Shown here piece by piece: positions 23,431 to 39,181 of a stretch of DNA of 64,000 nucleotides. How positions within the stretch are numbered: the first letter of the stretch is position 1; every line of letters begins with the position of its first letter. The notes below the pieces were generated by a model. That model saw only the letters and a program-made list of their open reading frames with translations, did not search any database and was not told where the DNA came from. The stretch spans positions 1,784-65,783 of the forward strand of contig SKSM01000067.1 of the NCBI GenBank assembly GCA_007122985.1, given 5' to 3'. Position numbers and translations under genes: made by a program. Source of the stretch: Nitriliruptoraceae bacterium (GTDB lineage Bacteria; Actinomycetota; Nitriliruptoria; Nitriliruptorales; Nitriliruptoraceae).

Positions 23431-23514
23431 GTCACCCTCCCAGACGGGCGGAGGGGCCCCGCAGGGTCCCTCCGTGGTGTTGCGTCAGCCTCGCCGCGGA
23501 CCCTTTCAGTCGAC
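23431..23514 (-). repeat. 85-nt repeat copy 2 (sense with the ribokinase gene, starts at its last two codons plus stop)
   Basis: Reverse complement reads GTCGACTGAAAGGGTCCGCGGCGAGGCTGACGCAACACCACGGAGGGACCCTGCGGGGCCCCTCCGCCCGTCTGGGAGGGTGAC. Confidence 0.85.
23450..23473 (-). terminator. GC-rich hairpin in repeat copy 2 (possible terminator of the EthD-ribokinase operon)
   Basis: Same stem as 22239-22262 with one A/C mismatch. The remaining differences between the hairpin regions of the two copies fall in the loops. Confidence 0.4.
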
Positions 23515-24435
23515 CCCGTGCATGTCCATAGGCAGGTCAGCTGCTTCTGGAAAACTCGTCTGTGTACCCCGGTACGCCACGCTGAAGGAAGCCACCTTCG
23601 AGGCTCGAGCGGCTGCCTGGCGAGTCGTAGCACCGCGGCCGAGGTAGTGCGCCAGACTGCCAACGAAGGCGTCGCCGGCCCCGGTCGTGTCGACCACCTC
23701 GACCTCGTCGCTCGGAAACGTCGTCGCGCCTTCATCGTCCACGACAAGGCAGCCGCGCTCACCGAGTGTCAGCACGACGGCCCCCGCGCCATATCTCCGC
23801 AGGACCTCAGCCTGCTGGATGGCCTGGTCGGGCGTGTGCAGTGTGCCGCCGGTCAGCAGCTCCGTCTCTGGCTCGTTTGGGCAGAAGATGTCTGCCAGGG
23901 TGTAGGCCTCGGCCGGGAGATCCGTGCGAGCCGGCGCGGGGTTGAGGATCGTCTGGACGCCTTCCTCGCGTGCTATCCGCAGTGCAGCGAGGGTGACGTC
24001 GATCGGGATCTCGAGCTGACACACGACAACGTTGGCTGCTGCGATCGCCGGGCGAGCTGCTTCGACGTCCTCGATACCGAGGTGGTCGTTCGCACCCGCG
24101 ACGATGATGATCGCGTTACGGCCCTCTTCGTCGACAGCGATGGGTGCGACGCCCGAGAACGCAGCACTGGTTTGATGGACATGAGTGGTGTCCACACCCT
24201 GTTCACGGAAGTTCTCCACCGTGCCATCGCCGAAGACGTCGGTCCCGAGCTTGACGACCATGGTGACCGACGAGCCGAGTTTGGCAGCCATCACTGCCTG
24301 GTTCGCTCCCTTACCGCCGTAGCCCATCCGAAACGATGAACCGTGCAGGGTCTCGCCCGGGACCGGCAGTCGCGGGACGTAGCTGATGAGGTCGAGCATC
24401 GATGCTCCGACCACGACGATGGAGCCGGCGTTCAT
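23506..24435 (-). CDS. rbsK: ribokinase (PfkB family sugar kinase)
   Basis: VVVGASMLDL...GGKGANQAVMAAKLG, NEPETELLTG and DTTGAGDAFVGSLA motifs. ATGA overlap with the upstream EthD gene. Confidence 0.85.
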   Translation of the reverse strand: MNAGSIVVVGASMLDLISYVPRLPVPGETLHGSSFRMGYGGKGANQAVMAAKLGSSVTMVVKLGTDVFGDGTVENFREQGVDTTHVHQTSAAFSGVAPIAVDEEGRNAIIIVAGANDHLGIEDVEAARPAIAAANVVVCQLEIPIDVTLAALRIAREEGVQTILNPAPARTDLPAEAYTLADIFCPNEPETELLTGGTLHTPDQAIQQAEVLRRYGAGAVVLTLGERGCLVVDDEGATTFPSDEVEVVDTTGAGDAFVGSLAHYLGRGATTRQAAARASKVASFSVAYRGTQTSFPEAADLPMDMHGVD

Positions 24436-24779
24436 ACTCCTGCTTCCTGGTCAAGCACGATCGCCTCACGTGTGTAGATGTGCGTGAGCGTCCTTGTGAA
24501 CGCGGCAACATCGGCGGCGGCGGCTTCACCGGCCTCTGAGGCAAAATCCTCCTGCATCTCCTCCAAGCTGTCCCACCAGAGTTCCGCGGTGCCGTCGTAC
24601 GGGAGCTCACCCTCGATCTCCTGGTACTCGTCGATCGCGATGTTGATCCGGTATCCCTTGAGGTGTGTGAACTGGAGGGTGAGCGGGGCGTGCTCGTCGA
24701 GCCATCGTCGCTCGAACGCTTCACGGCTCATGCCGGGAGCGGCCTTGAGCATGGCGATCAACTTCACCTGCCGTGACAT
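24432..24779 (-). CDS. EthD-domain protein (dimeric alpha/beta-barrel family)
   Basis: 115 aa. KLIAMLKAAPGMSREAFERRWLDEHAPL N-terminus typical of EthD-like proteins. GAGGAG SD upstream. Confidence 0.7.
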   Translation of the reverse strand: MSRQVKLIAMLKAAPGMSREAFERRWLDEHAPLTLQFTHLKGYRINIAIDEYQEIEGELPYDGTAELWWDSLEEMQEDFASEAGEAAAADVAAFTRTLTHIYTREAIVLDQEAGV

Positions 24780-25550
24780 TTCGTTCTCCTCTGAATCTTC
24801 GCGTCCACGAGGTCTGGGAGGTACGGGTCCTGGTGCCGTACCGGCGCACCGACGTGTCCGGCTTCTACCGTCACCTCGCCTGGGGGCGCGCCGGCCGTCA
24901 GGGGCCCCCAGGCACCTCCGGCATCCGTTCTGAAGGACGAGGCCCCGGTTGGCAGGCGTCCAGACGGTTCAGCCTCGCGCCGCACCGCAGGGGCGGGCGG
25001 CGGCGTCCCCATCGCGCGGATCGGAGAGGGATGAGGCGCTGAAGACGGTCGACCTCTGCTGCCTGCGCCGCGGCGTGACTGGAAACCTTGTACGACCGTG
25101 TCCGTGAGCCAGTAGTCACCTGGCGAGTCCGCCGCTGACGTCCGCCCGATCGACGAGACCACCATGCAGGGGGCTTGGATGGTGTTGAAGATGGGGATGG
25201 CGAACATGCAACCAAGTTACACCATGCCCGAGCTGCGGTGATGATCGTCACAACATGCTCCTCGGACACGCTGTGGCGGCTGTGTTGGCGAGGGTGTTAC
25301 CAAGTCCGGGGCCGCCGGCGCTGAGCGGGCCGGTCTCCGCTCCTCCTCACAGACTGCGTGGCAAGGCGCCGTGACGGCACCTTGGGCTCGCAGCTCTGAG
25401 CCCGAGTGCGTCGTTCTACGGCAATACCCCCACGACTCAACCGACGGACGACATGGACTGGGTGCGCGTCCACGATGGGGGGCGCAATCGGCTGGGGCAG
25501 TCGGCCCGGGCGACTCCCACCCGCCGCTCACTCCCGGAGCGAGGGAGACC

Positions 25551-25596
25551 TTGACGGTGGGACAGCAGCGGGCCATACTGATGTAACACTGTTACA
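25551..25596 (+). promoter_or_regulatory. sigma70-type promoter (TTGACG-17 nt-CATACT) overlapped by 15-bp palindromic operator TGTAACACTGTTACA
   Basis: -35 at 25551-25556, -10 at 25574-25579, palindrome at 25582-25596. Lies 45 nt upstream of the first gene of the island operon. Confidence 0.5.
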
Positions 25597-25640
25597 CGGT
25601 CCGTGCTCCAACTGCTGCTCTGGTATGGGAAGGACAGTCG

Positions 25641-26543
25641 ATGCGGGTCGCCGGTCACACGATGGGTACACCTGACATGGATCTGGCCGATGCGTTCAGG
25701 CTGTTCCGGCGTGCCGGTCTCGATGCAGCTGAGGTCGTGTGGCAGGACGGCTACCGAGCTGGAATCCCGGCCTCCGGGGGGAGCACCGATGTCGAAGAGG
25801 CGGCCCGTCTTCAAGACGAGCTCGGCGTGAAGATCATCTGCCTGACCCCATACATGAGTGAAATCAACAGTCTGAATGATCGCGAGCGGGAGGCCGGGAT
25901 AGCGGCGTTCCAGAAGTGCATCCGTGATGCCGAACGTTTGTCTTGTGGACGCATTCGCGTATATGCCGGCAGTTTCCTGGCAGGGGAAGAGGAGGTCTAC
26001 GACACCAAGTGGCAGCGGCTCATCGAATCGCTCCGCTTCCTCGGCCCTATCGCAGACGCTGCCGGGGTCACCCTGTGCGTCGAGAACCACTTCAACACGA
26101 TGGCGGCGACTGCTCAACAGACGGCCGCGTTGCTAGAGGACGTTGCCACGAAAGGGGTGGGCGTCCTCTATGACCAGGCCAACCTGGATTTTGCCCATCA
26201 GGAACCCTACGAGGTGGCTTTGCCGCTGCTCCTGCCGTGGATCGAACACGTGCAGGTCAAGGACTTCGTATTCACCGATCCCGATGCGCCGTTCGAGGCA
26301 GCCGCCGTAGAAACGGTCGATTCCAGCAAGCGTGCGGTTCAGTCCCGACCGGTCGGAGACGGTGTCATGGATTGGAAGGCCATCCTTGGCAAGCTTCATG
26401 CGGCGGGATACGACGGGTATCTGTCGCTGGAATACGAGTACAGATGGCATCCCCAGGACCTGCCACCACCGGACGTCGGATTCCCACGGAGCGCATCGGT
26501 CGTGCGGTCCCTGCTTGCTGAGCTAGAAGGGAATACGCCGTGA
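25641..26543 (+). CDS. sugar phosphate isomerase/epimerase (xylose isomerase-like TIM barrel)
   Basis: 300 aa. CVENHFNT and YDGYLSLEYEY metal-site contexts typical of the AP_endonuc_2 / IolE / dehydroshikimate-dehydratase superfamily. Confidence 0.8.
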   Translation: MRVAGHTMGTPDMDLADAFRLFRRAGLDAAEVVWQDGYRAGIPASGGSTDVEEAARLQDELGVKIICLTPYMSEINSLNDREREAGIAAFQKCIRDAERLSCGRIRVYAGSFLAGEEEVYDTKWQRLIESLRFLGPIADAAGVTLCVENHFNTMAATAQQTAALLEDVATKGVGVLYDQANLDFAHQEPYEVALPLLLPWIEHVQVKDFVFTDPDAPFEAAAVETVDSSKRAVQSRPVGDGVMDWKAILGKLHAAGYDGYLSLEYEYRWHPQDLPPPDVGFPRSASVVRSLLAELEGNTP

Positions 26544-27412
26544 AACTCTCCGTCGTTACTGATGAGGTAAGCGCAGATCTGGAGACGTCGCTTGAAATCA
26601 TCAGCGGGTGGGGGGTCGACGCAGTGGAACTGCGCGGCATTGGTGAGCGCCGCTATCCGGCGGTCTCCGAATTCTGGCGGGCCCGCGTCCCTGAACTGAT
26701 CTATGAGTCGGGCCTCGAAGTCGCAGCTCTTTCACCCGGGCTCTTCAAGATCCCTTACCCGACGCGTCCAGGGGACGACACGCGGATCCTCCGGTGGGAG
26801 GATGCGCTGCTCTTTCAGCGATATCAAGAGGCGGAAGCCCTCGTGCGACACCACCTCGAAGTCTTGTTGCCGCAGAGCATCGAAGCGGCTCAGCAGTTGG
26901 GTGCGCCGACCGTGGTGTGCTTCAGCTTCGATCGGGTCGGTTCGGACGCAGGCGAACATGTGGCGCCGGAAGCGGTCGTTGACATCCTCCGCCATGCAGC
27001 TGCGCAGACCGCTGAGGCCGGCCTAACGCTCGCGATCGAGGTCGAACACGTCTGCTGGGGCGACACGGGCGCCCGCACCGCCGAGCTACTTCGCCGGATC
27101 GACCATCCCGCGGTCGGTATCAACTGGGACCCCGCCAATGCCTACCGAAGCGGCGAGGATCACCCATTCCCCCACGGCTACGGCGACGTTCGCGACCGTC
27201 TGCGGCACGTCCACTTCAAGGATGCCTATACGGATCCGTCCACCGGTCTCCGTTGGTTTGGATCCGAGGGCGTCGTGGACTGGGAGGGACAAGTGGCTGC
27301 GCTGCGTGACGATGGCTATGACGGGTTCATCTCTGTCGAAACCCACGATCGACCGAAGGTCGCACGTACGAGAGATGCGGTCGAGCGTCTGAGAGGTCTG
27401 GGCGTGCAATGA
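26540..27412 (+). CDS. sugar phosphate isomerase/epimerase (xylose isomerase-like TIM barrel), second paralogue
   Basis: 290 aa. LAIEVEH, HVHFKD and YDGFISVETHD motifs. GTGA overlap with the previous gene. Confidence 0.8.
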   Translation: MKLSVVTDEVSADLETSLEIISGWGVDAVELRGIGERRYPAVSEFWRARVPELIYESGLEVAALSPGLFKIPYPTRPGDDTRILRWEDALLFQRYQEAEALVRHHLEVLLPQSIEAAQQLGAPTVVCFSFDRVGSDAGEHVAPEAVVDILRHAAAQTAEAGLTLAIEVEHVCWGDTGARTAELLRRIDHPAVGINWDPANAYRSGEDHPFPHGYGDVRDRLRHVHFKDAYTDPSTGLRWFGSEGVVDWEGQVAALRDDGYDGFISVETHDRPKVARTRDAVERLRGLGVQ

Positions 27413-28311
27413 CTACGCGGCCTGGTGGGATCGTCTGTCCCCTCGCGACACCCCTCGACCATGACGAGCGACTCGATCGAGCGGGCCTAGTGCAGTTGAT
27501 CGACCGAGTGCTGCCATACGTCGATGGAATCTTCCTCCTTGGGTCCTCTAGCGAGTACCCACTCCTGCGGGACGAAGTCGCGGCCGAAGTCGTCGAGGTA
27601 GCGATCGATCACATTGCTGGCGTCGTTCCCGTGTACATCGGCGTGGGAGACACGAGCACGGCTCGTGCCGTCGATCGGCTCCCGAAGGCTGCAGAGTCCG
27701 GCGCCAATTATGCGGTCGCCTTGTCGGGGTTCTACCACTCCGTGCCGGTCCAGTCGGCGCTCGAGCGGCACTTCCTTCAGATCGCAGAATCCTCACGATT
27801 GCCGGTGATCCTTTACAACATCCCCCAGAACACGGCAAACGCGTTAACGCCTCAAACGGTGGTCTCGCTAGCTGAACATCCTAATATCGTGGGGATAAAG
27901 GACAGCTCTGGGGACATGATCTCGTTCTCGGGTTTTCTAGGTGCACAATCGCCGTCCTTCAGCGTCATGCAGGGGCGTGAGCATCTCGCTGCCGCTTCCA
28001 TGTGGCTAGGGGCAGACGGGGTCATATCCGCGCTCGGGAACCTCACGCCGAACCTGCTCCAGCGGCTCGCGATGGCGGTAAGGCAAGGGGAGCGTGTTGC
28101 AGCTCTCGAACTGCAACGTGAGGTAGAGACTGTTGCCCAGGTATTCGCTCAAGGGCACTGGCTCAGCGCCCTCAAAGTTAGCCTAGGAGTGCTCGGGATT
28201 GGCTCGGGGCAAATCGTCTCGCCGCAGCCAGCGCTTACTGATGATCAGTACAGCGCAGTGTTGGGAATCCTGAAGAAGGTCGGACTTCTATCGGAGGCAG
28301 GACATGGATGA
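27409..28311 (+). CDS. DHDPS/N-acetylneuraminate-lyase family class I aldolase or dehydratase
   Basis: LLGSSSEYPLL and VGIKDSSGD (Schiff-base Lys context). ATGA overlap with the previous gene. Confidence 0.85.
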   Translation: MTTRPGGIVCPLATPLDHDERLDRAGLVQLIDRVLPYVDGIFLLGSSSEYPLLRDEVAAEVVEVAIDHIAGVVPVYIGVGDTSTARAVDRLPKAAESGANYAVALSGFYHSVPVQSALERHFLQIAESSRLPVILYNIPQNTANALTPQTVVSLAEHPNIVGIKDSSGDMISFSGFLGAQSPSFSVMQGREHLAAASMWLGADGVISALGNLTPNLLQRLAMAVRQGERVAALELQREVETVAQVFAQGHWLSALKVSLGVLGIGSGQIVSPQPALTDDQYSAVLGILKKVGLLSEAGHG

Positions 28312-29137
28312 TACTGAGATCCAGAAGAAGTCCCCTTCCGGGCCGACCGCTGCAAGTATTCGCTGGAAGGCGTTGGGATCAGCTGCCTCGATATTCGGTA
28401 CACCGTTGCTCACGGCTATCGGACTGTTCGTCGCATGGGAGTTGCTCGTACCCGCGTTTGACGTGCCCTCTTACATCCTGCCAGTTCCTACCGCCTTCTT
28501 TGCGTACATCGTGGAAGAGGCGGCGTTACTCTGGGAGCATACGCAGGTGACGGCCACGGAGATAATCTGGGGTTTTCTCATCGCTACAGCGACGAGCATT
28601 CCATTAGGTTTGATCATCGCATCGGTTAAGTGGGTCGAAAGAGCTTTCTATCCGTTGATCGTCTTTTTTCAAATCATTCCGAAGATCGCGATCGCACCTC
28701 TTTTTATCATCTGGTTCGGATTTGGTATCACACCCAAGATCCTCGTCACGTTCCTATTGTGTTTCTTCCCAACACTTGTGTCGAGCATCTTCGGCTTCAA
28801 AGCGGTTAGTCAGCAACTCCTCTACATTACACAGACCATGGGAGCGAGTCGTTGGCAGACTTTCCGATACATCCGACTACCTGTAGCGTTGCCACACATC
28901 TTTTCCGGCCTCCAGGTTTCCGTTGTACTAGCGGCGACAGGCGCGATCGTTGGTGAGTTCGTTGGCGCGCAAGCTGGCCTTGGTTACCTGTTGATGCGAG
29001 GTACAGCCTTCTTGAACACCGAACTCGTATTCGCGGCCTTGGCCGTGCTGAGCGTCATGGGGGTGGTATTTAGCTACCTAGTAACGATGGCGGAGAATCT
29101 GTTGATGCCGTGGCGAAGGAAGTCGGTATCGACATGA
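28304..29137 (+). CDS. ABC transporter permease (NitT/TauT-type, BPD transport domain)
   Basis: 277 aa. Six hydrophobic segments and an EAA-like loop (TQTMGASRWQTFRYIRLPVALP). Confidence 0.85.
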   Translation: MDDTEIQKKSPSGPTAASIRWKALGSAASIFGTPLLTAIGLFVAWELLVPAFDVPSYILPVPTAFFAYIVEEAALLWEHTQVTATEIIWGFLIATATSIPLGLIIASVKWVERAFYPLIVFFQIIPKIAIAPLFIIWFGFGITPKILVTFLLCFFPTLVSSIFGFKAVSQQLLYITQTMGASRWQTFRYIRLPVALPHIFSGLQVSVVLAATGAIVGEFVGAQAGLGYLLMRGTAFLNTELVFAALAVLSVMGVVFSYLVTMAENLLMPWRRKSVST

Positions 29138-29267
29138 CACGGAGCGTAGCCATGCCGCATGAGAGCGTCCGGGCGACCCGCTCGGTCAGGGGCCTATACC
29201 CATCGGGCCCACAGGGTCGGTTCGGCCTCTGGCCGGCCCGACGAATCAGCCCCGCGAGGTGATGAAC

Positions 29268-30353
29268 ATGAGACGATTCACTAGATATTTCGCACTACTC
29301 GCCGTTGGCGCGCTAGTGCTGGTCGCATGCGACGCCGAGGAGCCCGAGGTCACCGATGACCCCGACGAGGTCGCAGAGCCAGAAGAGGTCGAGGAGCCCG
29401 AGGAAGAGCCCGAGGAGGTGGAGGAACCGGAAGCGGACAGTGTCACTTTGACACTGAACTGGCTGGCTGGTGGGCCACAGGCTGGATTCACGTACGCGAA
29501 GGACCTGGGCTACTACGAAGAGGAGAACCTGGACGTCGAGATTCAAGAGGGCGAGGGTTCGGTCACCACGGCCCAGCTCGTCGCTACCGGCGGGACTGAC
29601 ATCGGTTTCGCTGATGGTATGGCGGCGATGCAGCTGCGAGGGCAAGACGCTCCGGTCACAATCGTGAGCCCGATCTTGCAGACGAACGCTTATGCCACGA
29701 TCTCCCTGGCCGAGACCGGAATCGAATCGATCGAGGATCTTGAGGGCAAGCGCGTCGGCGTTCAGCCGGACGGATCTCCGGGCTTGATGCTGCCGGCGAT
29801 CCTGCAGGCCCACGGCCTGACGGAGGACGATATCGATCGGGTGGACTCCGACCCCGCCGCGCTCGTGCCGGCTCTGCTCCAGGGCGAGGTGGATGCGATC
29901 CTGGGTGGAGCCGATGCCCAGGCAGTGAGCATCCGAGCCGAAGGTGAAGAGACCAACGAGCAGTTCCACGCGGAGAGCGGTGCTCCGACGATCGGCCTGT
30001 CGATTCTCGTCAATGACTCCATGATCGACGAGCAGCCTGATGTGATCGAGCGGTTCGTTCGTGCAAGCATCCGGGGATGGGCCGCGGCGCGTGAGGATCC
30101 GACTGCTGCAGCTCAGTCGATCGCCGACGCCTTCCCGACGTCAGCGACAGACCTCGATCAGGTCGAGGAGCAACTGCGCGTGGACCTCTCGGTGTTGTGC
30201 GCTGAAGGCGCCGAGGATGTCGGCGACGCACCGGATGACGTGTGGGAGTCGTCACATCAGATCGGGATCGACTACATGGAACTGAACCCTGATCTCCCGC
30301 TCGATGAGTACTTCACCCGCCAGTTCCTCCCCGACGACGCACCAGCCTGCTGA
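29268..30353 (+). CDS. ABC transporter substrate-binding lipoprotein (NMT1/THI5-like, NitT/TauT-type) with acidic PEE-repeat linker
   Basis: Signal peptide plus lipobox LVLVAC; linker PEEVEEPEEEPEEVEEPE; SBP body (LTLNWLAGGPQAGF...). Start could be 29259, 29262 or 29268. Confidence 0.8.
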   Translation: MRRFTRYFALLAVGALVLVACDAEEPEVTDDPDEVAEPEEVEEPEEEPEEVEEPEADSVTLTLNWLAGGPQAGFTYAKDLGYYEEENLDVEIQEGEGSVTTAQLVATGGTDIGFADGMAAMQLRGQDAPVTIVSPILQTNAYATISLAETGIESIEDLEGKRVGVQPDGSPGLMLPAILQAHGLTEDDIDRVDSDPAALVPALLQGEVDAILGGADAQAVSIRAEGEETNEQFHAESGAPTIGLSILVNDSMIDEQPDVIERFVRASIRGWAAAREDPTAAAQSIADAFPTSATDLDQVEEQLRVDLSVLCAEGAEDVGDAPDDVWESSHQIGIDYMELNPDLPLDEYFTRQFLPDDAPAC

Positions 30354-30375
30354 GTAAGCACGAAGGAGTCACGGA

Positions 30376-31182
30376 GTGAGCGCCTCAACGCCTTCAGGCG
30401 AGCAAGAGACGACTGGTCACCAGGTGACCATCGACGACGTCTCAAAGACGTACGTCTCTTCAAAGAAGTACGTTGAGGCGCTCAAGCCGATCAGTCTAGA
30501 CATCGATGCAGGCGAATTCGTCAGCGTTGTTGGTCCGAGCGGGTGCGGCAAGAGCACACTGCTGCTGTTGATCGCCGGCTTGATCAAGCCATCCTCTGGT
30601 GAGATCCGGGTCGGTGGGGAACGAGTCACGGAACCACTCACCGACGTTGGCATCGTCTTCCAGGATCATCTGCTGCTCGAGTTTCGAACGGCTGAGGAGA
30701 ACGTCCTCCTTCAGACCCAAGTACGGAAGCACCCCAAAGATGAAGCGAAAGAGGCTGCAGCTGCGCTGTTCACGCAGCTAGGTCTTGAGGACGCAGAATC
30801 GCGGTATCCCAAGCAGCTCTCTGGTGGGATGCAACAACGGGTGTCGATCGCTCGGGCGCTCATTCATGACCCGTCGATCCTGATGATGGATGAACCGTTC
30901 GGGGCTCTCGACGCGCTCACACGAGCACAGATGCGTGAAGACGTCGAAGCACTTTGGCTCGCGAAGCGCAAGACAGTGTTCTTCATCACGCACAGTGTTG
31001 AGGAAGCGGTAGGTCTGTCCGACCGGGTCATTGTCTTCTCAACGTCGCCCGGCCATATCGTCGACGAACTGAAAATCGAACTTCCTCGTCCCCGCCCCGT
31101 TGAACTTGGCAGCGAGCGCGCTTTCGTTGAATATTCGGAACGCATATACGCCCGATTTCGAGAGATGGGTGTCTTGAAATAG
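30376..31182 (+). CDS. ABC transporter ATP-binding protein (NitT/TauT-type)
   Basis: Walker A GPSGCGKST, signature LSGGMQQRV, Walker B ILMMDEP. GTG start 7 nt after AAGGAG. Confidence 0.9.
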   Translation: MSASTPSGEQETTGHQVTIDDVSKTYVSSKKYVEALKPISLDIDAGEFVSVVGPSGCGKSTLLLLIAGLIKPSSGEIRVGGERVTEPLTDVGIVFQDHLLLEFRTAEENVLLQTQVRKHPKDEAKEAAAALFTQLGLEDAESRYPKQLSGGMQQRVSIARALIHDPSILMMDEPFGALDALTRAQMREDVEALWLAKRKTVFFITHSVEEAVGLSDRVIVFSTSPGHIVDELKIELPRPRPVELGSERAFVEYSERIYARFREMGVLK

Positions 31183-31201
31183 TTGGAGAAGGAGGCTGCT
31201 G

Positions 31202-32191: not shown

Positions 32192-32209
32192 GATCAGACA
32201 GGAGCGAAC

Positions 32210-33223
32210 ATGACCACTTTGAAGATCGGCACCTATCTCCCGAACTTCTCGTACGGAGATGACGGGCTCGATCATTCAGCGCGCCTGAAGAACTGGATCA
32301 TCCGCTCGGAGGAGCTGGGGCTTGACTCGATCTGGGTGACGGACCATCTCCTGCGTGCACGGGACATGTACGCCCGGACATGGCTGGAGCCGCTTACGAG
32401 CCTGTCCTTCGCAGCGGGGCTGACAAGGCGTGTGCAGCTGGGACCAGGCGTCCTACTTCTCCCGCTTCGGGACCCGGTCCTGCTCGCCAAGGAGATCGCC
32501 AGCATCCAGGCGCTCTCAGGTGGACGCTTCATCCTGGGTGCAGGGACGGGTTGGTTCGGTCCTGAGTTCGAGGCAACAGGTACCTCGAAGGCGGTTCGTG
32601 GTGCGCGGACGGATGAGGTCTTGGAGGTGGTCCGCGAGCTGTTGACAGGCAAGCCGGTCACGTTCAAGGGTCAGTTCGTCGACATCTCGGATGTCACGAT
32701 CGAACCGTCCCCGAGCCCGACGCCGATCTGGGCAGGAGGTGGAAGCCAGCTTGCCCATCCGGGGTCCGTCGAGAAGCCACGCTTGGCTGCGCCTGTGGCT
32801 AGGCGGATCGCACGAGCAGACGGTTGGTTCACGCGCCCGACGGCTCAACCCTCGCAGATTGTTGAGGATTGGAAGCAACTACAGCCGTACATCGAGGAGG
32901 TTGGACGTAGCCCAACGGATATCGAGCTGGGTCACGGTCAACTTCTTTACCTGAGTGACAAGCGTGACCGTGCGAGCGCGCTAGAGGAACAGCATCGAGT
33001 TGCGGCGGACATCCTAGGTCACAACCGGAGCCGTGAGCAGCTTGAGCAGTCCTACCTGTTCGGAACCATCGATGAGGTGATCGAAGAGTGTCGCCGCCGC
33101 GCTGACATCGGTGTGGAGCATCTGATTCTGCATCCTCTGACGGATGATCCCGAGCAGATGGAATTGTGGGGACGCGAGCTGATCCCAGCGCTCAAGGAGA
33201 TGGAAGTCGGTCCGCGGCTATGA
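32210..33223 (+). CDS. LLM-class (luciferase-like) flavin/F420-dependent oxidoreductase
   Basis: 337 aa. SIWVTDHL and GRFILGAGTGW motifs typical of luciferase-like monooxygenases. Confidence 0.8.
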   Translation: MTTLKIGTYLPNFSYGDDGLDHSARLKNWIIRSEELGLDSIWVTDHLLRARDMYARTWLEPLTSLSFAAGLTRRVQLGPGVLLLPLRDPVLLAKEIASIQALSGGRFILGAGTGWFGPEFEATGTSKAVRGARTDEVLEVVRELLTGKPVTFKGQFVDISDVTIEPSPSPTPIWAGGGSQLAHPGSVEKPRLAAPVARRIARADGWFTRPTAQPSQIVEDWKQLQPYIEEVGRSPTDIELGHGQLLYLSDKRDRASALEEQHRVAADILGHNRSREQLEQSYLFGTIDEVIEECRRRADIGVEHLILHPLTDDPEQMELWGRELIPALKEMEVGPRL

Positions 33224-34092
33224 CAGTGCTTGCACGTCTGCAGTGGGGGGACGCAACACCACGTATTGGGATCGTAGAAGACGGCCTGGTTCACCTGACG
33301 TATTTCGAGTCGCTCCTTGACTGGTTCGAGGCTGAGCGGACGTCGTGGGCGGGTATATCACTTGATTGGGATCAGCTCCTCCGTGGGTCTGTGGAGGGGT
33401 ACCGTGTCCTTGCGCCACTTGCTCCACCGGAGGTTTGGGGCTATGGCTTCACCTACGAGCGTGGTTCGCAGTTCACAACATCTCCCGTGATCCCTACTGG
33501 AGCGGCATACGAACATGCGATCGCCTCTGGGCGCCCCGAGATCTTCTTCAAGACGACCGCCTGGCGTGTGGTGGGGCCAGAACAGGAGATCGGCATTCGT
33601 GGCGATGCGGGCTACACAGCAGCGGAAGCAGAGCTGTGTGTCATCATCGACGGTGACGCTCGCCCGATACTCTTCACGGCCGGCAACGATGTATCCGCCT
33701 GGGACATCGAGGCGCGTAATCCGCTCTGGCTCGCTCAAGGCAAGACCTACGAGTCATGCTGTTCCCTTGGGCCCGTCGCTGTGACCAGGGACGAGCTGCG
33801 ACCGAACGCAGAGATCCGGTGCCGCATCTCCCGTTCCGGTGAGCCGCTATTCGAAGGCAGCAACCGCATCGACAGGATGCATTGGAGTTTCGACGAGCTT
33901 GCACAGTTCGCTGCGGCGTTCAATCCGCTTCCACCAGGCACGGTGTTGATGACCGGAACGGGGATCGTCCGACCAGACGCGGAGAGTCTCGTTGACGGTG
34001 ACATCGTCGAGATCAGCATCGAGGGCATCGGCGTCCTGCGCAACCGTGCTGCAAAGCTCTCGTCCCCCGTTCCCTACCGTCCCTATGAGTGA
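33220..34092 (+). CDS. fumarylacetoacetate hydrolase (FAH) family protein
   Basis: ATG 33220 (ATGA overlap with the LLM gene). EAELCVIIDG and GNDVSAWDIE metal/active-site contexts of the FAH fold. Confidence 0.8.
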   Translation: MTVLARLQWGDATPRIGIVEDGLVHLTYFESLLDWFEAERTSWAGISLDWDQLLRGSVEGYRVLAPLAPPEVWGYGFTYERGSQFTTSPVIPTGAAYEHAIASGRPEIFFKTTAWRVVGPEQEIGIRGDAGYTAAEAELCVIIDGDARPILFTAGNDVSAWDIEARNPLWLAQGKTYESCCSLGPVAVTRDELRPNAEIRCRISRSGEPLFEGSNRIDRMHWSFDELAQFAAAFNPLPPGTVLMTGTGIVRPDAESLVDGDIVEISIEGIGVLRNRAAKLSSPVPYRPYE

Positions 34093-34103
34093 CAGGACGG
34101 ACC

Positions 34104-34863
34104 GTGAGTGTCTTGACAGGTCGGGTCGTTCTCGTGGCGGGTGGAAGTAGGGGCATTGGGGCCGCCGTCGCCAGGTCCGTAGCGAAAGAACGCGCACGAG
34201 TTGGATTCTGCTACCGCAGTGCACACGAAGCGGCCCAGCAGCTCTGCACGACGCTCGAGAGCCTCGGAGCTGAGTCTCGGTGCTATAAGACCGACGTGCC
34301 AGACAGGGGAGCAGGTGCAGGACCTCGTTGCAAAGGTGGAGCGCGACTTCGGGCGCACCGATGGCCTCGTGAACAACGCCAGGATTATGCCAATGGGTCA
34401 ATCGATCGAGGTAGGCGGGGACACCTGGTGCATCGTGCTAGATGCCAACCTCAGTGGTGCGTTCTTCTGTACGCAGTCTGCGGTGCCGGGGATACTCGCG
34501 TAGGGGAACGGTAGCGTTGTGATGGTCACCTCCCGGCTCGCACAGGTTGGGCTAGCACCGACTGCTGCCTACTGCGTAAGTAAGACGGGACTGATCGGGC
34601 AAACACAGTCGCTCGCCATCGAGTTCGCGTCGGGAGGTGTTCGTGTCAATGTCGTTGCACCAGCGGTTGTGAATAACGATTTGAGCGCGGCGAGTCTGAA
34701 GACCGGAGCTAGCGCTCCCCATGCCTCAGAGTTTCCTCTTGGCTGCTTCGCAGAGCCGAATGAGATCGTGGCGAGCGTGCTGTTCCGCCTGAGCGATTCC
34801 GCAGCCCACTCTACGGGACAGGCGCTGAACCCGAACGTGGGTAGCTACATGCAACAAACATGA
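34104..34863 (+). pseudogene. short-chain dehydrogenase/reductase (SDR) gene disrupted by a frameshift and an in-frame TAG
   Basis: Frame 0 carries VLVAGGSRGIGAAV (cofactor motif) up to about 34305. Frame +1 then carries EQVQDLVAKVERDFGRTDGLVNNA...AVPGILA, stopped by TAG 34501-34503. The same frame continues GNGSVVMVTS...AAYCVSKTGL (catalytic YxxxK). Confidence 0.75.
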
Positions 34864-34876
34864 GATCGGTATCACG

Positions 34877-36451
34877 ATGAAGTTGATAACGGTGCAGGAT
34901 GCTGTCCAACTCGTGCCCGACGAAGCAACGTTGCTCATCGTAGGCGCTGGTGATGGCCTTGTCGTCCCTCAACTCTTCATAGATCAGTTGGCCCAATACT
35001 TTGTTGAGACAGGTCGACCGCGTGAACTGACAACCGTACGTGTTGTCGGGATTGGCGATTGGGCTGATCGCGGATTCTCTCAGCTCGCCATACCTGGATT
35101 GATGAAGAGAACCATCGGAAGCAATATTGGTAATGAGCCAGAGCTCGGAGAGATGGTTCGTCGCAATGAGATCGAGGCCTACTCATTGCCTCAAGGTGTC
35201 CTCTCGCAACTGATACGTGATATCGGAGGGGGGCGGCCTGGCGCGATCACACGAACCGGACTCCACACCTTTGTTGACCCTCGGCAGTCGGGTGGGAAAC
35301 AGAACGACATCACGACATGTGACATAGTGGAAGTCGTTACGCTGAAGAATGAAGAGTATCTCTTCTATCACGCCTTTCCTATAGATGTAGCTGTCATTCG
35401 TGGCACGACTGCAGATGAAGATGGAAACCTCACCATGGACGGTGAAGTCTTTGAGGGCGAGATGTTGGCATCTGCGATCGCTGCCCGCAACAGCGGGGGC
35501 ATCGTGATAGCACAAGTGAAGTACCTTGCAGCCCGTGGCTCCCTAGCCCAACGGATGGTGCGTGTTCCAGGGGCACTGATCGATTACGTGTATGTGGACG
35601 CCGCTCAGCGGCAGACCTATGCGACGGAGAACTCCCCCTACTACTCGGGTGCACTTCGGCGGCCGCCGACGGTGGCGGAGTACGTTGGGCTTGACAGACG
35701 GAAGGTGATCGCGCGCCGAGCGCTCTTGGAGTTCAGAGCGGGCGATATCGTGAACCTTGGTTTCGGCATAAGCATGGGCATCGGCGCCATTGCATTCGAG
35801 GAGGGCATCGCCGACAGGTTGTGCTTGACGGTAGAGGTAGGAGTCTTCGGGGGCGTTCCCATGTCTGGCGAGGACGGTGGTGCCGGTTTCAACTACCAGG
35901 CAATCATCGGACAACCCTCAATGTTCGACCTCTACGACGGTGGTGGACTCGACATCGCGAGCCTGTCGTTCGCTGAGGTCGACGCGGTGGGGAATGTGAA
36001 CGTGCACGCATTCGCTGGTCGTCTTCGGGGCCCGGGCGGTTTTCCGAACATCAGCTCGAAGACGAAGCGTCTCTGCTTCGTGGGTTCGTTGACAAGCGGT
36101 GGTCTACACACCGAAGTTGTCGATGGCTCGATCCAGATATCCAGGGAAGGTGATGTGCAGAAGTTCGTTCCTGAGGTGAATGAGATCACTTTCAATGGTC
36201 GCGTTGCACGTGAGCGAGGACAGCAGGTTCTTTTCATCACCGAGCGGGCAGTGTTTGCCCTGACCGACAGAGGGGTGACTTTGACCGAGATTGCTCCAGG
36301 TCTCGACATCGAGCGGGATGTCATCGAGCATATGGGCTTTCGTCCAGCGATCGCGCAGGAGGTGCGGTCTATGGATCCAAGATTGTTCATGCCGGAACAG
36401 ATGGGATTAGTTGCGGACTTGGGTAAGTCAGATCGGATCGGACGTGGATGA
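34877..36451 (+). CDS. family I CoA-transferase (acyl-CoA:acetate/3-ketoacid CoA-transferase, YdiF-like fused alpha-beta)
   Basis: 524 aa single-chain enzyme. N-terminal VQDAVQLVPDEATLLIVG; mid-protein LTVEVGVFGGVP (catalytic Glu context). Confidence 0.8.
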   Translation: MKLITVQDAVQLVPDEATLLIVGAGDGLVVPQLFIDQLAQYFVETGRPRELTTVRVVGIGDWADRGFSQLAIPGLMKRTIGSNIGNEPELGEMVRRNEIEAYSLPQGVLSQLIRDIGGGRPGAITRTGLHTFVDPRQSGGKQNDITTCDIVEVVTLKNEEYLFYHAFPIDVAVIRGTTADEDGNLTMDGEVFEGEMLASAIAARNSGGIVIAQVKYLAARGSLAQRMVRVPGALIDYVYVDAAQRQTYATENSPYYSGALRRPPTVAEYVGLDRRKVIARRALLEFRAGDIVNLGFGISMGIGAIAFEEGIADRLCLTVEVGVFGGVPMSGEDGGAGFNYQAIIGQPSMFDLYDGGGLDIASLSFAEVDAVGNVNVHAFAGRLRGPGGFPNISSKTKRLCFVGSLTSGGLHTEVVDGSIQISREGDVQKFVPEVNEITFNGRVARERGQQVLFITERAVFALTDRGVTLTEIAPGLDIERDVIEHMGFRPAIAQEVRSMDPRLFMPEQMGLVADLGKSDRIGRG

Positions 36452-37229
36452 CGACCTTGTTCGTGTTGTGCTCGGCCCCGTGGCAGAGATCCATCTCATA
36501 CATCCCCCTCTCAACCTCATAACGGCCGTGGTAACCCGTCAACTGGCTACCGCTCTGGACCAGATTGAGAGCGACCATGAGATTCGAGCGGTGGTGCTTT
36601 CCGCGGCCGGAGATCGCGCCTTCTGTGCAGGTTCGGATATCAAAGAGACTGCTGAGCTTCGGGGGACGATCGCACAAGGTAAGCTGCTGCTGGAGAAGTT
36701 TGTTTTCCGTCGTCTCAGTAAACTAGCTGTGCCGACCATCGCCGCGATCCAAGGGCATGCGCTGGGCGGGGGTCTTGAGCTTGCGCTGTGTTGTGATCTG
36801 CGTATTGCAGACTCGACCGCTCGGCTCGGGCTCCCAGAGGTATGTCTCGGAGCGGTTCCAGGTAGTGGTGGCACGCAGCGCTTGCCACGTGTGGTTGGCC
36901 CTGCGCATGCGAAGAAGCTTCTGTTTACTGGCGAGTCCATCGGCTCCGCTGTGGCGGCGCAGATCGGTTTGCTCAATGAGGTGGTGCCGACTGGCTCCGC
37001 ACGTGGTCGGGCCTTGGAGATCGGCCAGACCATCGCCTCACGCGGGCCAGAGGCCGTCCGCGAAGTCAAGCGTTTGGTCGACAATGCAACGGAGACCGAA
37101 CTCGATCACGGATTGGCCTTGGAACTTGACGCGTCCCAACGGCTATCAGCGACCGACAATGCGATCGAAGGATTCCGCGCGTTCTTCGAGAAGCGGGAGC
37201 CATTCTTCACCGGGATACAGGAGGATTAG
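36444..37229 (+). CDS. enoyl-CoA hydratase/isomerase (crotonase) family protein
   Basis: AFCAGSDIKE and IAAIQGHALGGGLELALCCDLRIA oxyanion-hole motifs. GTG 36444 overlaps the upstream stop. Confidence 0.85.
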   Translation: MDDDLVRVVLGPVAEIHLIHPPLNLITAVVTRQLATALDQIESDHEIRAVVLSAAGDRAFCAGSDIKETAELRGTIAQGKLLLEKFVFRRLSKLAVPTIAAIQGHALGGGLELALCCDLRIADSTARLGLPEVCLGAVPGSGGTQRLPRVVGPAHAKKLLFTGESIGSAVAAQIGLLNEVVPTGSARGRALEIGQTIASRGPEAVREVKRLVDNATETELDHGLALELDASQRLSATDNAIEGFRAFFEKREPFFTGIQED

Positions 37230-38093
37230 GTGGAGGGTCGCGTAGCATTGATCGGAAAGCCGTTGCGTCGGCGACATGGTGCAGTTATGCACAATGCGGC
37301 CTTCGCAGCTTGCGGTATGAGAGCTCAAGCAGAGTTGGTGGAGTTGGATGAGGTCGAACTGCCTAGCTTCGTGGAGTCACTGAAGAAGCCTATGTGGATT
37401 GGGTTCCAGGTCACCTCTCCATACAAGCGGTCCATCATGGGACTGCTCGATCACATTGAAGACGATGCTGAGATCATTGGGGCTGTCAACAGTGGTATTC
37501 GCGAACCGAATGCTACGCTGACAGGATTCAATACGGATATGCCTGGCTGGCTCGACGCGGTGCGACGTGAACTATCGTTCGATATCCGTGGTTCACGTGT
37601 CTTGCTGCTCGGAGCAGGAGGTGTTGCACATGCGATCGCATACGCCTGTGTCGCACAGGGAGCTGATGCACTGACGATTGCTGATCAGATGCCTGAGGCT
37701 GCCGCTCGCCTGGCGAAACGCTTGAGGAGTGTTGATACGCAAGTGACGAGTACTAGAACTGGCACCGACTGGGCGCATGCTTCCTTGCTCGATTGTGATC
37801 TGCTGATCAATGCAACGACGGTTGGTATGACGGTTCCAGGGCCCTTAGTTGACGTCTCTGCCTGTCAACCGCATACCCGGGTCTTTGACGCCGTGTTCTC
37901 CCCACCCATGACGGAACTCGTGAGGGCGGCTCGCGCACGAGGCTTGATGGCAGTGAACGGGGGAGGGATGCTGGTCTCGCAGGCGGCGATCGCGTTCGAG
38001 CGGTGGACGGGTCGAACCGACGTGTATGATGTTATGGAGGCGGCAGTCCGGCCATTGTTAATGGCAATGCCGGGCTCGCACCCTCCGGACTAG
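37230..38093 (+). CDS. shikimate/quinate dehydrogenase family protein (divergent substrate-site motif)
   Basis: QVTSPYK (catalytic Lys), GFNTD (catalytic Asp) and GAGGVAHAIAYA Rossmann motif. The canonical N-terminal HSxSP is replaced by RRRHGAV. Confidence 0.8.
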   Translation: MEGRVALIGKPLRRRHGAVMHNAAFAACGMRAQAELVELDEVELPSFVESLKKPMWIGFQVTSPYKRSIMGLLDHIEDDAEIIGAVNSGIREPNATLTGFNTDMPGWLDAVRRELSFDIRGSRVLLLGAGGVAHAIAYACVAQGADALTIADQMPEAAARLAKRLRSVDTQVTSTRTGTDWAHASLLDCDLLINATTVGMTVPGPLVDVSACQPHTRVFDAVFSPPMTELVRAARARGLMAVNGGGMLVSQAAIAFERWTGRTDVYDVMEAAVRPLLMAMPGSHPPD

Positions 38094-38359
38094 AACGAAG
38101 GGCGGGCGACGTCAGGACGTAACCCTCCGATCACATATCGGCTTCCGTGAAACGAACTGCATGAGGATCTGCGTAACTTGCCGTCAGCGCCAAGTCGGCT
38201 TGGATCCGTCCGACCGGTGGTGAGGGCGTCGAGCACATTGTGGGCTACCTGGCAGGATCCGTTAACCTTGTTGGACGGAGAGGCTGTACGGAGCGGGCCG
38301 GCACGTGAATCTAAAGGTGCCGCACGGTGTAGGAGTTGCTCGTAAGTCCGAACGAACTC

Positions 38360-39181
38360 ATGAGAGAAGCGCAGATGTCGAACAACTCAGGGCATGGGCA
38401 GGCGGTTGGCCGGGCGCTGCGTATACTTGAGCTTCTTGCCCCAGAGCGTGATGGTTTGCGCGTTACGGATATCGCGAACGCTTTGCAGCTAAACAAGGCA
38501 ATCGTTTTTCGGATCCTTAGTGAGTTGGTTAGGAACCGTTATGTAGCCCAAGATCCAAATAGCCAGCGATATGTAGCAACCTTCACCCTGGCTGCTGTCG
38601 GTTTGCAGAAGCTCGAGTCAGGCAATTTGAACGAGTGGGCTCAGGAGCCCCTCGATCGGCTTGCGGCAAGAACGAAGGAACTCGTCCGACTTGCTGTCGC
38701 TGAAGGGAGTTCACTTCACTGGATTGCGAAAGCTCAGGGTGCGAACTCGGGATTGATGGTCGACGCCGCGGCGGGCAAGGGCGTACAGCTCCATGCAACT
38801 GCTACAGGTAAAGCGTGGCTCTCGACGCTCGACAATGATCATGTTCGCGACATCATCTCGAGGGTTGGCTTGCCTGCGCAAACGCCGAACACGATCACGG
38901 ACATCGAGACGCTGCTAGCGGATCTCGAGACTGTGCGTCAACATGGCTTTGCCACGACCACGGAGGAGATGGACCCCGGTATCACGGCGGTGGCGGCTCC
39001 GATTGTGCGTGGAGGAGGGCACGCAGGAGCAGCGGTGGGGACCGTCAGCGTCGCCGGTCCGGCGGCGAGGCTGGGACCGGAGATGCTGGAGCACTTCGCT
39101 CCGGATGTAATAGCCACAGCGTCCGAACTCGCCACGAGATGGTCGATCTACGAGCAGGGGCCGAACTTCGTTGTGCAATAG
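38360..39181 (+). CDS. IclR family transcriptional regulator
   Basis: HTH region GRALRILELLAPERDGLRVTDIANALQLNKAIVFRIL and a C-terminal IclR effector domain. Start is ATG 38360 or 38375. Confidence 0.85.
   Translation: MREAQMSNNSGHGQAVGRALRILELLAPERDGLRVTDIANALQLNKAIVFRILSELVRNRYVAQDPNSQRYVATFTLAAVGLQKLESGNLNEWAQEPLDRLAARTKELVRLAVAEGSSLHWIAKAQGANSGLMVDAAAGKGVQLHATATGKAWLSTLDNDHVRDIISRVGLPAQTPNTITDIETLLADLETVRQHGFATTTEEMDPGITAVAAPIVRGGGHAGAAVGTVSVAGPAARLGPEMLEHFAPDVIATASELATRWSIYEQGPNFVVQ

Follow-up and report, generated by a model that had tools for sequence, protein, structure and literature searches.

An AT-Richer Accessory Island in a Nitriliruptoria Genome Carrying a Candidate Two-Module Catabolic Operon

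The 64,000-nucleotide stretch analyzed here (hereafter the window; contig SKSM01000067.1 of the Nitriliruptoraceae assembly GCA_007122985.1) contains an AT-richer segment in which 13 plus-strand genes and an IclR-family regulator are located between positions 25641 and 39181. The operon is a fusion of two gene modules that occur separately in other loci, namely module A (25641-34092) and module B (34089-38093). Module A encodes two TIM barrels, a DHDPS-family lyase, a NitT/TauT-type ATP-binding cassette (ABC) importer, a Gfo/Idh/MocA dehydrogenase (GFO), an F420-type luciferase-like (LLM) oxidoreductase, and an FAH-family enzyme resembling 2-keto-3-deoxy-D-arabinonate dehydratase (KdaD). Module B encodes an SDR, a YdiF-type coenzyme A (CoA) transferase, a crotonase, and a shikimate-dehydrogenase-like (SDH-like) enzyme. 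We consider the chances roughly even that this is an acquired two-module catabolic operon through which a polyhydroxylated carbocycle or sugar-like compound would be imported, oxidized non-phosphorylatively, and then subjected to CoA-dependent acid processing.

Evidence for a Horizontally Acquired Operon

The compositional break, which the sequence-only reading had noted by eye, was borne out by measurement. GC content in 1-kb windows is 0.55-0.63 at 25-39 kb versus 0.70-0.75 over 1-18 kb and 41-64 kb, and GC content at third codon positions (GC3) ranges from 0.55 to 0.74 (mean 0.65, standard deviation 0.05) in the 13 operon genes versus 0.80 to 0.93 (mean 0.88, standard deviation 0.04) in 22 flanking open reading frames (ORFs) picked for high GC3 (Mann-Whitney p = 5.5e-7). 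The flanks encode penicillin amidase, HflX, LexA, an intein-containing class II ribonucleotide reductase, a molybdenum hydroxylase, HypF, and other proteins. Since the flank HflX is 80-87% identical to proteins of Nitriliruptoraceae metagenome-assembled genomes (MAGs) and Egicoccus, the host chromosome is that of a Nitriliruptoria member; the window itself is part of a 76-kb contig from a MAG. Host-like sequence is present on both sides of the island within one contig, with the island placed between nrdJ and a 5'-truncated DUF3179 gene.

Several loci elsewhere carry the same gene order. Independent, near-identical assemblies from three samples (loci L081-L083) repeat the island at 99.8-100% identity, including a split SDR gene, and one 20-kb near-identical contig, judged from its coordinates alone, would reach left into nrdJ. 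L084 shows the same order from the substrate-binding protein (SBP) gene to the SDH-like gene, with a CoA-transferase 81% identical to that of the window. L086 and L087, recovered from the samples that also gave the exact copies, preserve the complete order (EthD, the 13 genes, and IclR) at ~70% nucleotide identity. Conserved versions with an intact SDR gene, for which a neighborhood comparison had been proposed, were thereby recovered in L084 and L086/L087. That the segment is present as an AT-richer insert in two or more high-GC genomes from a single community supports horizontal acquisition, and a further copy (L144) has flanks that differ from those of the window on both sides. Given the composition break, an ISL3 element at a truncated host gene, and diverged copies in other contexts, the proposal that the segment is a horizontally acquired accessory island is supported. 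As an observation on L086 itself, the island there (L086:1-18114) has a GC content of 55-58%, and its sequenced right flank rises to ~70% GC and carries other genes (an SSB gene and small ORFs).

Tight chaining of the genes had also been proposed and was found throughout apart from two larger gaps: neighboring genes overlap by 4 or 8 nt or are separated by 1-22 nt, the exceptions being 130 nt before the SBP gene and ~280 nt before iclR. Because the genes are overlapping or tightly spaced and their order is conserved in L084 and L086/L087, the interpretation of the 13 plus-strand genes as one operon is supported.

Two Modules That Occur Separately

Module A is found without a complete module B in L144 and L145. 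In L144, which was reached through the SBP, genes for IclR, both TIM barrels, the DHDPS-family lyase, permease, SBP, ATPase, GFO, LLM, and FAH encode proteins 53-70% identical to those of the island, and the CoA-transferase, crotonase, and SDH-like genes are missing; this locus represents an independent decay of module B by deletion. In L145, a LacI gene, TIM barrel 1, the DHDPS-family gene, three transporter genes, GFO, and LLM (50-67% identical) are followed downstream by URO-D, another TIM barrel, and a cupin, with no CoA genes; FAH is absent, and the counterpart of TIM barrel 2 is just 27% identical. A detail of L144 is a 76-residue 5' SDR stub directly after the FAH gene (L144:14843-15061), together with a duplicated IclR fragment at 6252-6377 of that locus.

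Module B, conversely, was found on its own among CoA-transferase relatives. All those inspected at 65-69% identity are arranged in the order SDR, CoA-transferase, enoyl-CoA hydratase (ECH), LLM, and SDH-like gene (L085, L088, L089, L135, L136, and L137), in high-GC loci (0.68-0.72) that are without module A. Named organisms among the matches of this CoA-transferase clade are Chloroflexota (Limnocylindria) MAGs only. The module-B-only clusters usually add an FAH gene, a DHDPS-family gene, LacI, a GMC oxidoreductase with its small subunit, and an aldehyde dehydrogenase, and two of the six carry a CUT2 sugar ABC transporter. CoA-transferase relatives below 50% identity are without the module, those of Burkholderiaceae excepted, and a metagenome search with the CoA-transferase provided one useful locus (L089), the others being below 50% identical, Pct-like, and without the module. 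The LLM of the window is 65-70% identical to those of L144 and L145 and 43-46% identical to the LLM of the Chloroflexota-type module B; it is thus an orthologue of the LLM of module A and not of that of module B. Relatives of this LLM in a plasmid search were just ~30% identical.

Two observations concern the module-B-only clusters themselves. In three of the six (L088:15015-15803, L135, and L137), a creatininase-family gene follows the FAH gene; it scores 99 bits versus a cut-off of 245 on the model for IolN (3-dehydro-scyllo-inosose hydrolase, which opens a diketo-inositol ring) and 127 versus 235 on creatininase, and its product may act as a hydrolase that opens a ring. On the BadH model (cut-off 431), the module-B SDR of L088 reaches 184 bits.

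Enzymes and Importer of Module A

Every gene family that the sequence-only reading had listed, including the IclR regulator, was confirmed by Pfam. At the level of NCBIfam, the LLM is the only operon product to pass a cut-off, and outside the operon the ribokinase, the EthD protein, and the ISL3 transposase do so; scores below are given in bits against these cut-offs. No characterized operon of this composition was found in full-text literature searches, among NCBIfam equivalogs, or in Protein Data Bank (PDB) sequence searches, and the earlier description of the pathway as unassigned therefore holds.

The first gene (25641-26543, plus strand) encodes TIM barrel 1, a xylose-isomerase-like protein (PF01261, 144 bits) whose best NCBIfam model is iolE (TIGR04379, 51 versus 290) and whose PDB matches, Art22 and IolE, are both weak. 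It is predicted to be a distantly IolE-like protein and a functional partner of the GFO, the two forming a conserved pair that is also seen, at 50% and 54% identity, on a plasmid of Herbiconiux sp. KACC 21604. TIM barrel 2 (26540-27412, plus strand; PF01261, 111 bits), also xylose-isomerase-like, is 67% identical to its orthologue in L144 and far under the cut-offs for IolO (33 bits) and QuiC (25 versus 1200), with QuiC at E=1e-4 in the PDB. The GFO (31202-32191, plus strand; PF01408 plus C-terminal domains), an NAD(P) dehydrogenase distantly resembling IolG (TIGR04380, 109 versus 355), has orthologues in L144 and L145 that are 67% identical. The LLM oxidoreductase (32210-33223, plus strand) passes the F420-type model TIGR03619 (184.4 versus 166.9).

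The DHDPS/NAL-family Schiff-base lyase (27409-28311, plus strand; PF00701, 180 bits) scores 150 versus 206 on dapA, 124 on the HpaI-NOT-DapA model, and 91 on KdgD, and its nearest PDB entries are DapA and the 2-keto-3-deoxy-acid aldolase YagE. The lysine of the GIKDSS motif is kept, and in the YNIPQNT motif an Asn takes the place of Arg138, the residue that binds aspartate semialdehyde in DapA; judging from these residues and scores, the enzyme is not DapA. The FAH-family enzyme (33220-34092, plus strand; PF01557) retains an E-x-E...D metal motif and is nearest to KdaD of Sulfolobus (PDB 2q18, E=1.5e-49, 172 bits). It is 61% identical to its counterpart in L144. Among the matches listed in a search of the genome collection, FAH relatives at 37-48% identity belong to Acidobacteriota, Poribacteria, and Chloroflexota and have no shared neighbors.

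The importer comprises a permease (28304-29137, plus strand; PF00528), a lipoprotein SBP of the NMT1/THI5 type (29268-30353, plus strand; PF09084, 163 bits; lipobox LVAC), and an ATPase (30376-31182, plus strand; PF00005). All three give sub-threshold matches to sulfonate-type models: the permease 95-111 bits on SaoP, TauC, and SsuC (TauC 106 versus 342; SsuC 95 versus 347), the ATPase 237 versus 360 on SaoA, and the SBP, which passes no equivalog, 76 versus 163.5 on SsuA_fam and 34 versus 304 on TauA. The permease is 62-63% identical to homologues in L144, L145, and L146. The SBP start codon was set after the gene call in L081 and the 361-aa protein P0242, and the nearest PDB entries of the protein are 4nmy, THI5/THI13, and ThiY, which come before TauA and SsuA. 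An unusually acidic, Glu/Pro/Asp-rich linker follows the lipobox (29268-29440; DDPDEVAEPEEVEEPEEEPEEVEEPE), which gave spurious PDB matches to TAL-effector repeats and is consistent with a saline habitat; the Nitriliruptoria lineage is typical of saline and alkaline waters.

The importer raises the question of whether the transporter class reveals the substrate, in which case the operon would serve an organosulfonate (taurine-, sulfoquinovose-, or DHPS-like) or another NitT/TauT-class solute. The permease and ATPase score highest on the SaoP/SaoA, TauC, and SsuC models, the habitat of the host lineage would fit, and a 48% identical SBP homologue lies near TauD-family genes in L146. However, Xsc, SuyAB, CuyA, an SsuD-type LLM, and a sulfite exporter are all absent from the island proteins, the LLM that is present belongs to the F420 subfamily, and the SBP is nearer to THI5/ThiY-type proteins than to TauA or SsuA, with the sulfonate models far under their cut-offs. 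We regard this explanation as very improbable. Sulfonate, riboflavin, or pyrimidine, the substrates that the SBP family would suggest, were dropped as the leading idea, as no desulfonating or ring-specific enzyme is encoded. The sequence-only reading was right about the NitT/TauT class of the importer. Its presence here is no oddity: such importers are found with module A in L144 and L145 and with a module-B-like cluster in Burkholderia sp. SFA1.

Module B and the SDR Pseudogene

The SDR gene that opens module B (34089-34863, plus strand), previously described as dead, is indeed a pseudogene: alignment to the 250-aa orthologues of L084 and L086, both intact, places a +1 insertion inside 34299-34315 and reveals a TAG stop in frame at 34500-34502. 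It is likewise split into two ORFs in the near-identical metagenome contigs L081 (99.8% nucleotide identity), L082, and L083 (both 100%), and because both lesions are common to all these contigs, the loss is fixed in the population.

The fused family-I (YdiF/Pct-type) CoA-transferase (34877-36451, plus strand; PF01144) is 45% identical to E. coli YdiF over its full length (511 residues), and its LTVEVG motif aligns to LTVETG of YdiF, whose Glu forms the thioester according to structural work on YdiF. The crotonase-type ECH (36444-37229, plus strand; PF00378, 193 bits) scores at most 225 bits on generic ECH models, all sub-threshold, and contains GGGLELAL and LPEV, which we take to be the two catalytic glutamate motifs. 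The shikimate/quinate-dehydrogenase-family enzyme (37230-38093, plus strand) has the N-terminal, C-terminal, and Rossmann domains of the SDH family in Pfam, with a best equivalog score of 192 versus 252. K66, N87, D103, and Q251 are invariant in seven cluster orthologues and AroE; AroE Ser14 is replaced by Arg in all actinobacterial- and Chloroflexota-type cluster members, and in the window lineage Ser16 is replaced by Gly and Tyr215 by Phe. With residue roles as in AroE (Lys/Asp catalytic, Asn/Gln binding ring hydroxyls, and Ser14, Ser16, and Tyr215 forming the carboxylate-binding site), the enzyme appears to keep the catalytic Lys/Asp pair and to have an altered carboxylate site. The SDH family also holds a 5-ketofructose reductase (7cok), and a non-shikimate polyol substrate is therefore possible.

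With its SDR gene inactivated, module B either lacks its beta-oxidation-like step here or has it supplied from elsewhere. Relaxed selection on the rest of module B was considered and set aside, as a relative-rate comparison of the window with L084, using L086 as the outgroup, revealed no acceleration in the CoA-transferase, ECH, or SDH-like gene; identity to the outgroup, for the window and L084 respectively, is 72.5% versus 70.4% for the CoA-transferase and 61.7% versus 60.8% for ECH. Either the SDR loss is therefore recent, or another SDR substitutes. Module A is evidently able to work alone. Taken with the module B deletion seen in L144, the SDR loss here suggests that selection maintains module A as the core, with module B dispensable in some settings. 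The island is thus a natural example of pathway assembly by module fusion followed by piecemeal decay (of the SDR here and of module B in L144).

The same lesions could also mean that the locus is a decaying relic, or an assembly chimera, without a working pathway. Two inactivating mutations in the SDR gene, the module B deletion in L144, the metagenome-assembled source, and an ISL3 element without a target-site duplication would all fit this explanation. We nevertheless judge it improbable: apart from the SDR gene, every operon gene (12 of 13) is intact, as is the regulator, the remaining module B genes are not accelerated, assemblies from three samples repeat the island at 99.8-100% with the coordinates of one contig pointing into nrdJ, and host-like sequence flanks the island on both sides within one contig.

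Proposed Pathway and Substrate

In the proposed two-module pathway, whose reaction order and substrate class we infer from gene content, the NitT/TauT-type ABC system would import a small organic solute, the GFO and the F420-type LLM would oxidize its hydroxyl groups with no phosphorylation, and the paired metal-dependent TIM barrels would dehydrate or isomerize the keto compound so formed, as in the IolG/IolE pair. The KdaD-like FAH and the DHDPS-family lyase would then turn a 2-oxo-3-deoxy acid into pyruvate and a second fragment. In module B, the CoA-transferase would make the thioester of a carboxylic acid, whether the imported compound itself or one formed by module A, and the crotonase would hydrate or dehydrate this thioester; the SDR, where intact, would oxidize a 3-hydroxyacyl-CoA, and the SDH-like enzyme would oxidize a ring-type secondary alcohol. 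In view of the recurring IolG/IolE-like, SDH-like, and IolN-like signals, the most likely substrate appears to be a polyhydroxylated carbocycle or a related sugar-like acid, such as a cyclitol or a quinate/shikimate-like hydroaromatic acid, with an acyclic sugar acid as the main alternative. Carbocycle or sugar chemistry is also favored by the conserved pairing of TIM barrel 1 with the GFO, the KdaD and YagE matches, and the LacI regulators and CUT2 sugar transporters of Chloroflexota-type clusters.

Several points weigh against this interpretation. No pathway enzyme reaches an equivalog threshold, so every reaction assigned above follows from family membership. The island is without a thiolase, a BadI-type ring hydrolase, an aldonate dehydratase, and an aldehyde dehydrogenase, so that both a beta-oxidation cycle and a Weimberg route would be incomplete in it. 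We know of no NitT/TauT/THI5-type binding protein for cyclitols or sugars, and SBP relatives below 50% identity occur in unrelated contexts (L146). The FAH and DHDPS genes of the module-B-only clusters are non-orthologous to those of the island (24-35% identity). Finally, the island is known from a MAG, and the right junction past the insertion sequence (IS) is covered by one contig, that of the window.

An oxidative, non-phosphorylative pathway of the Weimberg/Dahms type, acting on an aldose, deoxy-sugar, or sugar acid, could account for much of the same gene content. The GFO and LLM would yield a lactone or acid, a TIM barrel would serve as the dehydratase, the FAH and a YagE-like aldolase would act on the 2-keto-3-deoxy acid, and module B would handle a short hydroxy-acid product (e.g., lactate, glycolate, or a 3-hydroxy acid) as its CoA ester. 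Such a pathway would agree with the close match of the FAH to Sulfolobus KdaD, the proximity of the DHDPS-family enzyme to YagE, a weak match of the GFO to the haloarchaeal xylose dehydrogenase Gfo6, and the ribokinase gene adjoining the island. Related clusters provide further agreement: LacI regulators and CUT2 sugar transporters occur in module-B-only clusters, the FAHs of related clusters resemble 2,4-didehydro-3-deoxy-L-rhamnonate hydrolase (395 versus 500), and on a Herbiconiux plasmid a TIM barrel 1 homologue (50%) directly adjoins a GFO homologue (54%) within a sugar-utilization cluster with gluconolactonase, gluconokinase, and Eda. Yet an aldonate dehydratase of the enolase or IlvD type, a lactonase, and a KGSA dehydrogenase are all missing from the island, the transporter class would be unusual for sugars, and the coupling of an SDH-family enzyme to a CoA-transferase across phyla would be left unexplained. 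We consider a Weimberg/Dahms-type pathway possible, although on the whole unlikely.

Comparison with Known Pathways

The island is built wholly from well-known enzyme families and is in this sense a typical IS-associated catabolic island, and it lacks defining features of the inositol, quinate/shikimate, Weimberg/Dahms, and alicyclic acyl-CoA systems. With myo-inositol catabolism, both of the Bacillus subtilis type (IolG/IolE) and of the Thermotoga type (IolN/IolO), it shares the pairing of a Gfo/Idh/MocA dehydrogenase with a TIM barrel. The best NCBIfam models of the GFO and TIM barrel 1 are iolG and iolE, and module-B clusters carry the IolN-like creatininase-family gene. However, all these scores are far sub-threshold (109 versus 355, 51 versus 290, and 99 versus 245), IolD, IolB, IolC, IolJ, and IolA are missing along with any ThDP enzyme or class II aldolase, the transporter is of another type, and the CoA module, F420 LLM, FAH, and DHDPS-family lyase are foreign to iol pathways.

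Quinate/shikimate catabolism (qui/qsu) likewise combines an SDH-family enzyme with the Lys/Asp and Asn/Gln residues, a TIM barrel to which TIM barrel 2 shows faint QuiC similarity, and an IclR regulator of the PcaR/PobR kind. In the island, however, dehydroquinase (no AroD/AroQ domain) and protocatechuate genes are absent, the QuiC score is 25 bits versus 1200, the SDH-like enzyme differs in its carboxylate-binding residues, and a CoA-transferase and a crotonase are present. The Weimberg/Dahms oxidative pentose pathway has its parallels in the KdaD-type FAH, the YagE-like DHDPS-family enzyme, and the Gfo-type dehydrogenase; the island differs in having no aldonate dehydratase, lactonase, or 2,5-dioxopentanoate dehydrogenase and in its additional CoA module and SDH-like enzyme. 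In alicyclic acyl-CoA beta-oxidation (BadK/BadH/BadI, acting on cyclohexanecarboxylate and benzoate), a crotonase hydratase and an SDR similarly act on a CoA ester, whereas the island contains neither a BadI-type ring-cleaving crotonase nor a CoA ligase, and its neighboring genes point to a polyhydroxylated substrate.

A precedent, by analogy, for CoA-dependent sugar-acid breakdown is the acyl-CoA route for 2-deoxyribonate in Klebsiella michiganensis, in which a sugar-derived hydroxy acid is converted to its CoA ester and the beta-hydroxyl is oxidized, and whose gene cluster contains a CoA-transferase (PMC6365646). Unlike the proposed pathway, this route uses a CoA synthetase and a thiolase and is without a crotonase, SDH-like enzyme, LLM, FAH, DHDPS-family enzyme, or TIM barrels.

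Pairing of CoA-Transferase and SDH-Like Genes Across Lineages

The most interesting element is the association of a CoA-transferase gene with an SDH-like gene, which spans Nitriliruptoria, high-GC contigs whose named relatives are Chloroflexota (Limnocylindria) MAGs, Burkholderiaceae, and the E. coli ydiB-ydiF region, and which comes with an SDR, a hydratase of the crotonase or MaoC type, and an enzyme of the FAH or DHDPS family. On a megaplasmid of Burkholderia sp. SFA1 (L138; BSFA1_62930-63010), LacI precedes genes for a NitT/TauT permease, SBP, and ATPase (45%, 38%, and 58% identical to those of the island), after which come a MaoC hydratase, a crotonase (47%), FAH, a YdiF-type CoA-transferase (51%), an SDH-family gene, and IclR (37%). 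In Paraburkholderia caribensis (L141, NZ_CP013105.1), a CoA-transferase, an SDH-family gene, a DHDPS-family gene, a TIM barrel, and an MFS transporter occur in that order. CoA-transferase homologues on plasmids of Rhizobium and Sinorhizobium were found in unrelated contexts (in S. meliloti, beside PHA-synthase genes).

In E. coli K-12 (L143, NC_000913.3 1772512-1778347), the order ydiN-ydiB-aroD-ydiF-ydiO puts a quinate/shikimate-dehydrogenase paralogue near YdiF. To our knowledge, the physiological role of this cluster has not been established. It resembles the island in that a dehydrogenase paralogue and a transporter lie beside a CoA-transferase, with YdiF 45% and YdiB 32% identical to their island counterparts, and it differs in having AroD, acyl-CoA dehydrogenase and ETF genes, and an MFS transporter and in being without a crotonase, LLM, FAH, DHDPS-family enzyme, or TIM barrels.

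We tentatively suggest, while holding it to be rather unlikely, that this pairing marks an undescribed non-aromatizing route for quinate/shikimate-like hydroaromatic or related carbocyclic acids. CoA activation would be followed by hydration, oxidation, hydrolytic ring opening to a C7 dioate, and HpaG/HpaI-like cleavage, with pyruvate and succinate semialdehyde as end products. We infer this scheme in its entirety; starting from a shikimate-type acid, it is chemically coherent. The DHDPS-family and FAH proteins of the island give sub-threshold matches to HpaI-type and HpaG-type models. The island would then be a version of this route coupled to a dedicated NitT/TauT-type importer.

If the proposed pathway is correct, two widespread gene modules would gain a function; one of them occurs in well over a hundred soil and water protein clusters at 90% identity and has an echo in E. 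coli ydiB-ydiF. A further consequence would be that NMT1/THI5-type ABC importers serve polyol-like carbon catabolism beyond sulfonates, nitrate, and vitamin precursors. For its host, the island points to a niche-specific carbon source that high-GC Nitriliruptoria trade within one community. With an ordinary sugar or cyclitol as the substrate, the operon would amount to just another variant of an oxidative sugar pathway.

As a minor annotation point, the P. caribensis gene L141:10602-11426, labeled as a "ThiF family adenylyltransferase", scores 182 bits on a shikimate-dehydrogenase model and is probably mis-annotated.

Borders of the Island and Neighboring Features

On the right side, the operon is followed by the IclR-family regulator (38375-39181, plus strand; PF09339 and PF01614), which gives sub-threshold scores on BhcR (153 bits) and PcaR/PobR (141 bits) and is 58% identical to its L144 orthologue, located there upstream of the operon. 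Beyond it lies an intact ISL3-family insertion sequence (39445-40861, minus strand) with a transposase gene at 39467-40765 (NF033550, 249.5 bits versus 180) and 27-bp imperfect inverted repeats at its ends (GGCTCTTCGG...); the element had no match in a plasmid search. Its right end directly adjoins the 5'-truncated host DUF3179 gene (40863-41348, plus strand), which has host-like composition and whose Pfam match begins at profile position 117 of 292, corresponding to residue 3 of the ORF, so that the first ~116 positions are gone. The N-terminal half of DUF3179, which would indicate a simple insertion, was not found among the stretches tested to the left of and near the island. Because the 8-mers flanking the element differ (GGTATGAC at 39437-39444 versus GGCATTGC at 40862-40869), leaving no intact 8-bp target duplication, the right junction suggests a rearrangement and not a simple IS insertion.

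The earlier proposal that mobile elements bracket the island was correct for the ISL3 element, which was located at exactly the coordinates given above, and found no support for the supposed transposase remnant at 23092-23262: none of five stop-free stretches within 23058-23504 matches Pfam at E<=1, and a tblastn search with the ISL3 transposase returned nothing near that position. The left border is diffuse, lying between 23.4 and 25.6 kb. A PfkB-family kinase gene (23506-24435, minus strand; Pfam PfkB) passes the ribokinase equivalog (TIGR02152, 339 bits versus 299.65) and scores 95 versus 300 on the iolC model. With an intermediate GC3 (0.77, as in the neighboring EthD gene), its membership of the island is uncertain. 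The EthD-family gene (24432-24779, minus strand, divergent from the operon; TIGR02118, 63.5 versus 30.5) probably belongs to the island, and it holds the same upstream position in L086/L087.

Neither a gene nor an RNA family was detected in the 861-bp spacer between ethD and the operon (24780-25640): two long minus-strand ORFs (24764-25207 and 25217-25576) have no Pfam match, and Rfam gave nothing at E<=1. The spacer contains one sigma-70-like site at 25551-25579, ~60 nt upstream of the first gene, although the number of promoter-like sites equals that expected by chance, and comparison with L086 showed no conservation at the DNA level. Across the whole window, Rfam at gathering thresholds gave no match, and no tRNA, no integrase, and no direct repeats flanking the island were found.

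The only repeat found is an 85-bp inverted pair with 89% identity (22197-22281 and 23431-23514), each copy of which contains a GC-rich hairpin. The pair encloses 1.15 kb of sequence, located between nrdJ and the ribokinase gene, in which Pfam recognizes no gene, and it could represent a host repeat or terminator element or else the termini of a mobile element that has decayed. Further to the left, the gene for the class II (B12-dependent) ribonucleotide reductase (18085-22140, plus strand) harbors an intein with a LAGLIDADG homing-endonuclease domain, the Pfam matches Intein_splicing and LAGLIDADG_3 being located inside Ribonuc_red_lgC.

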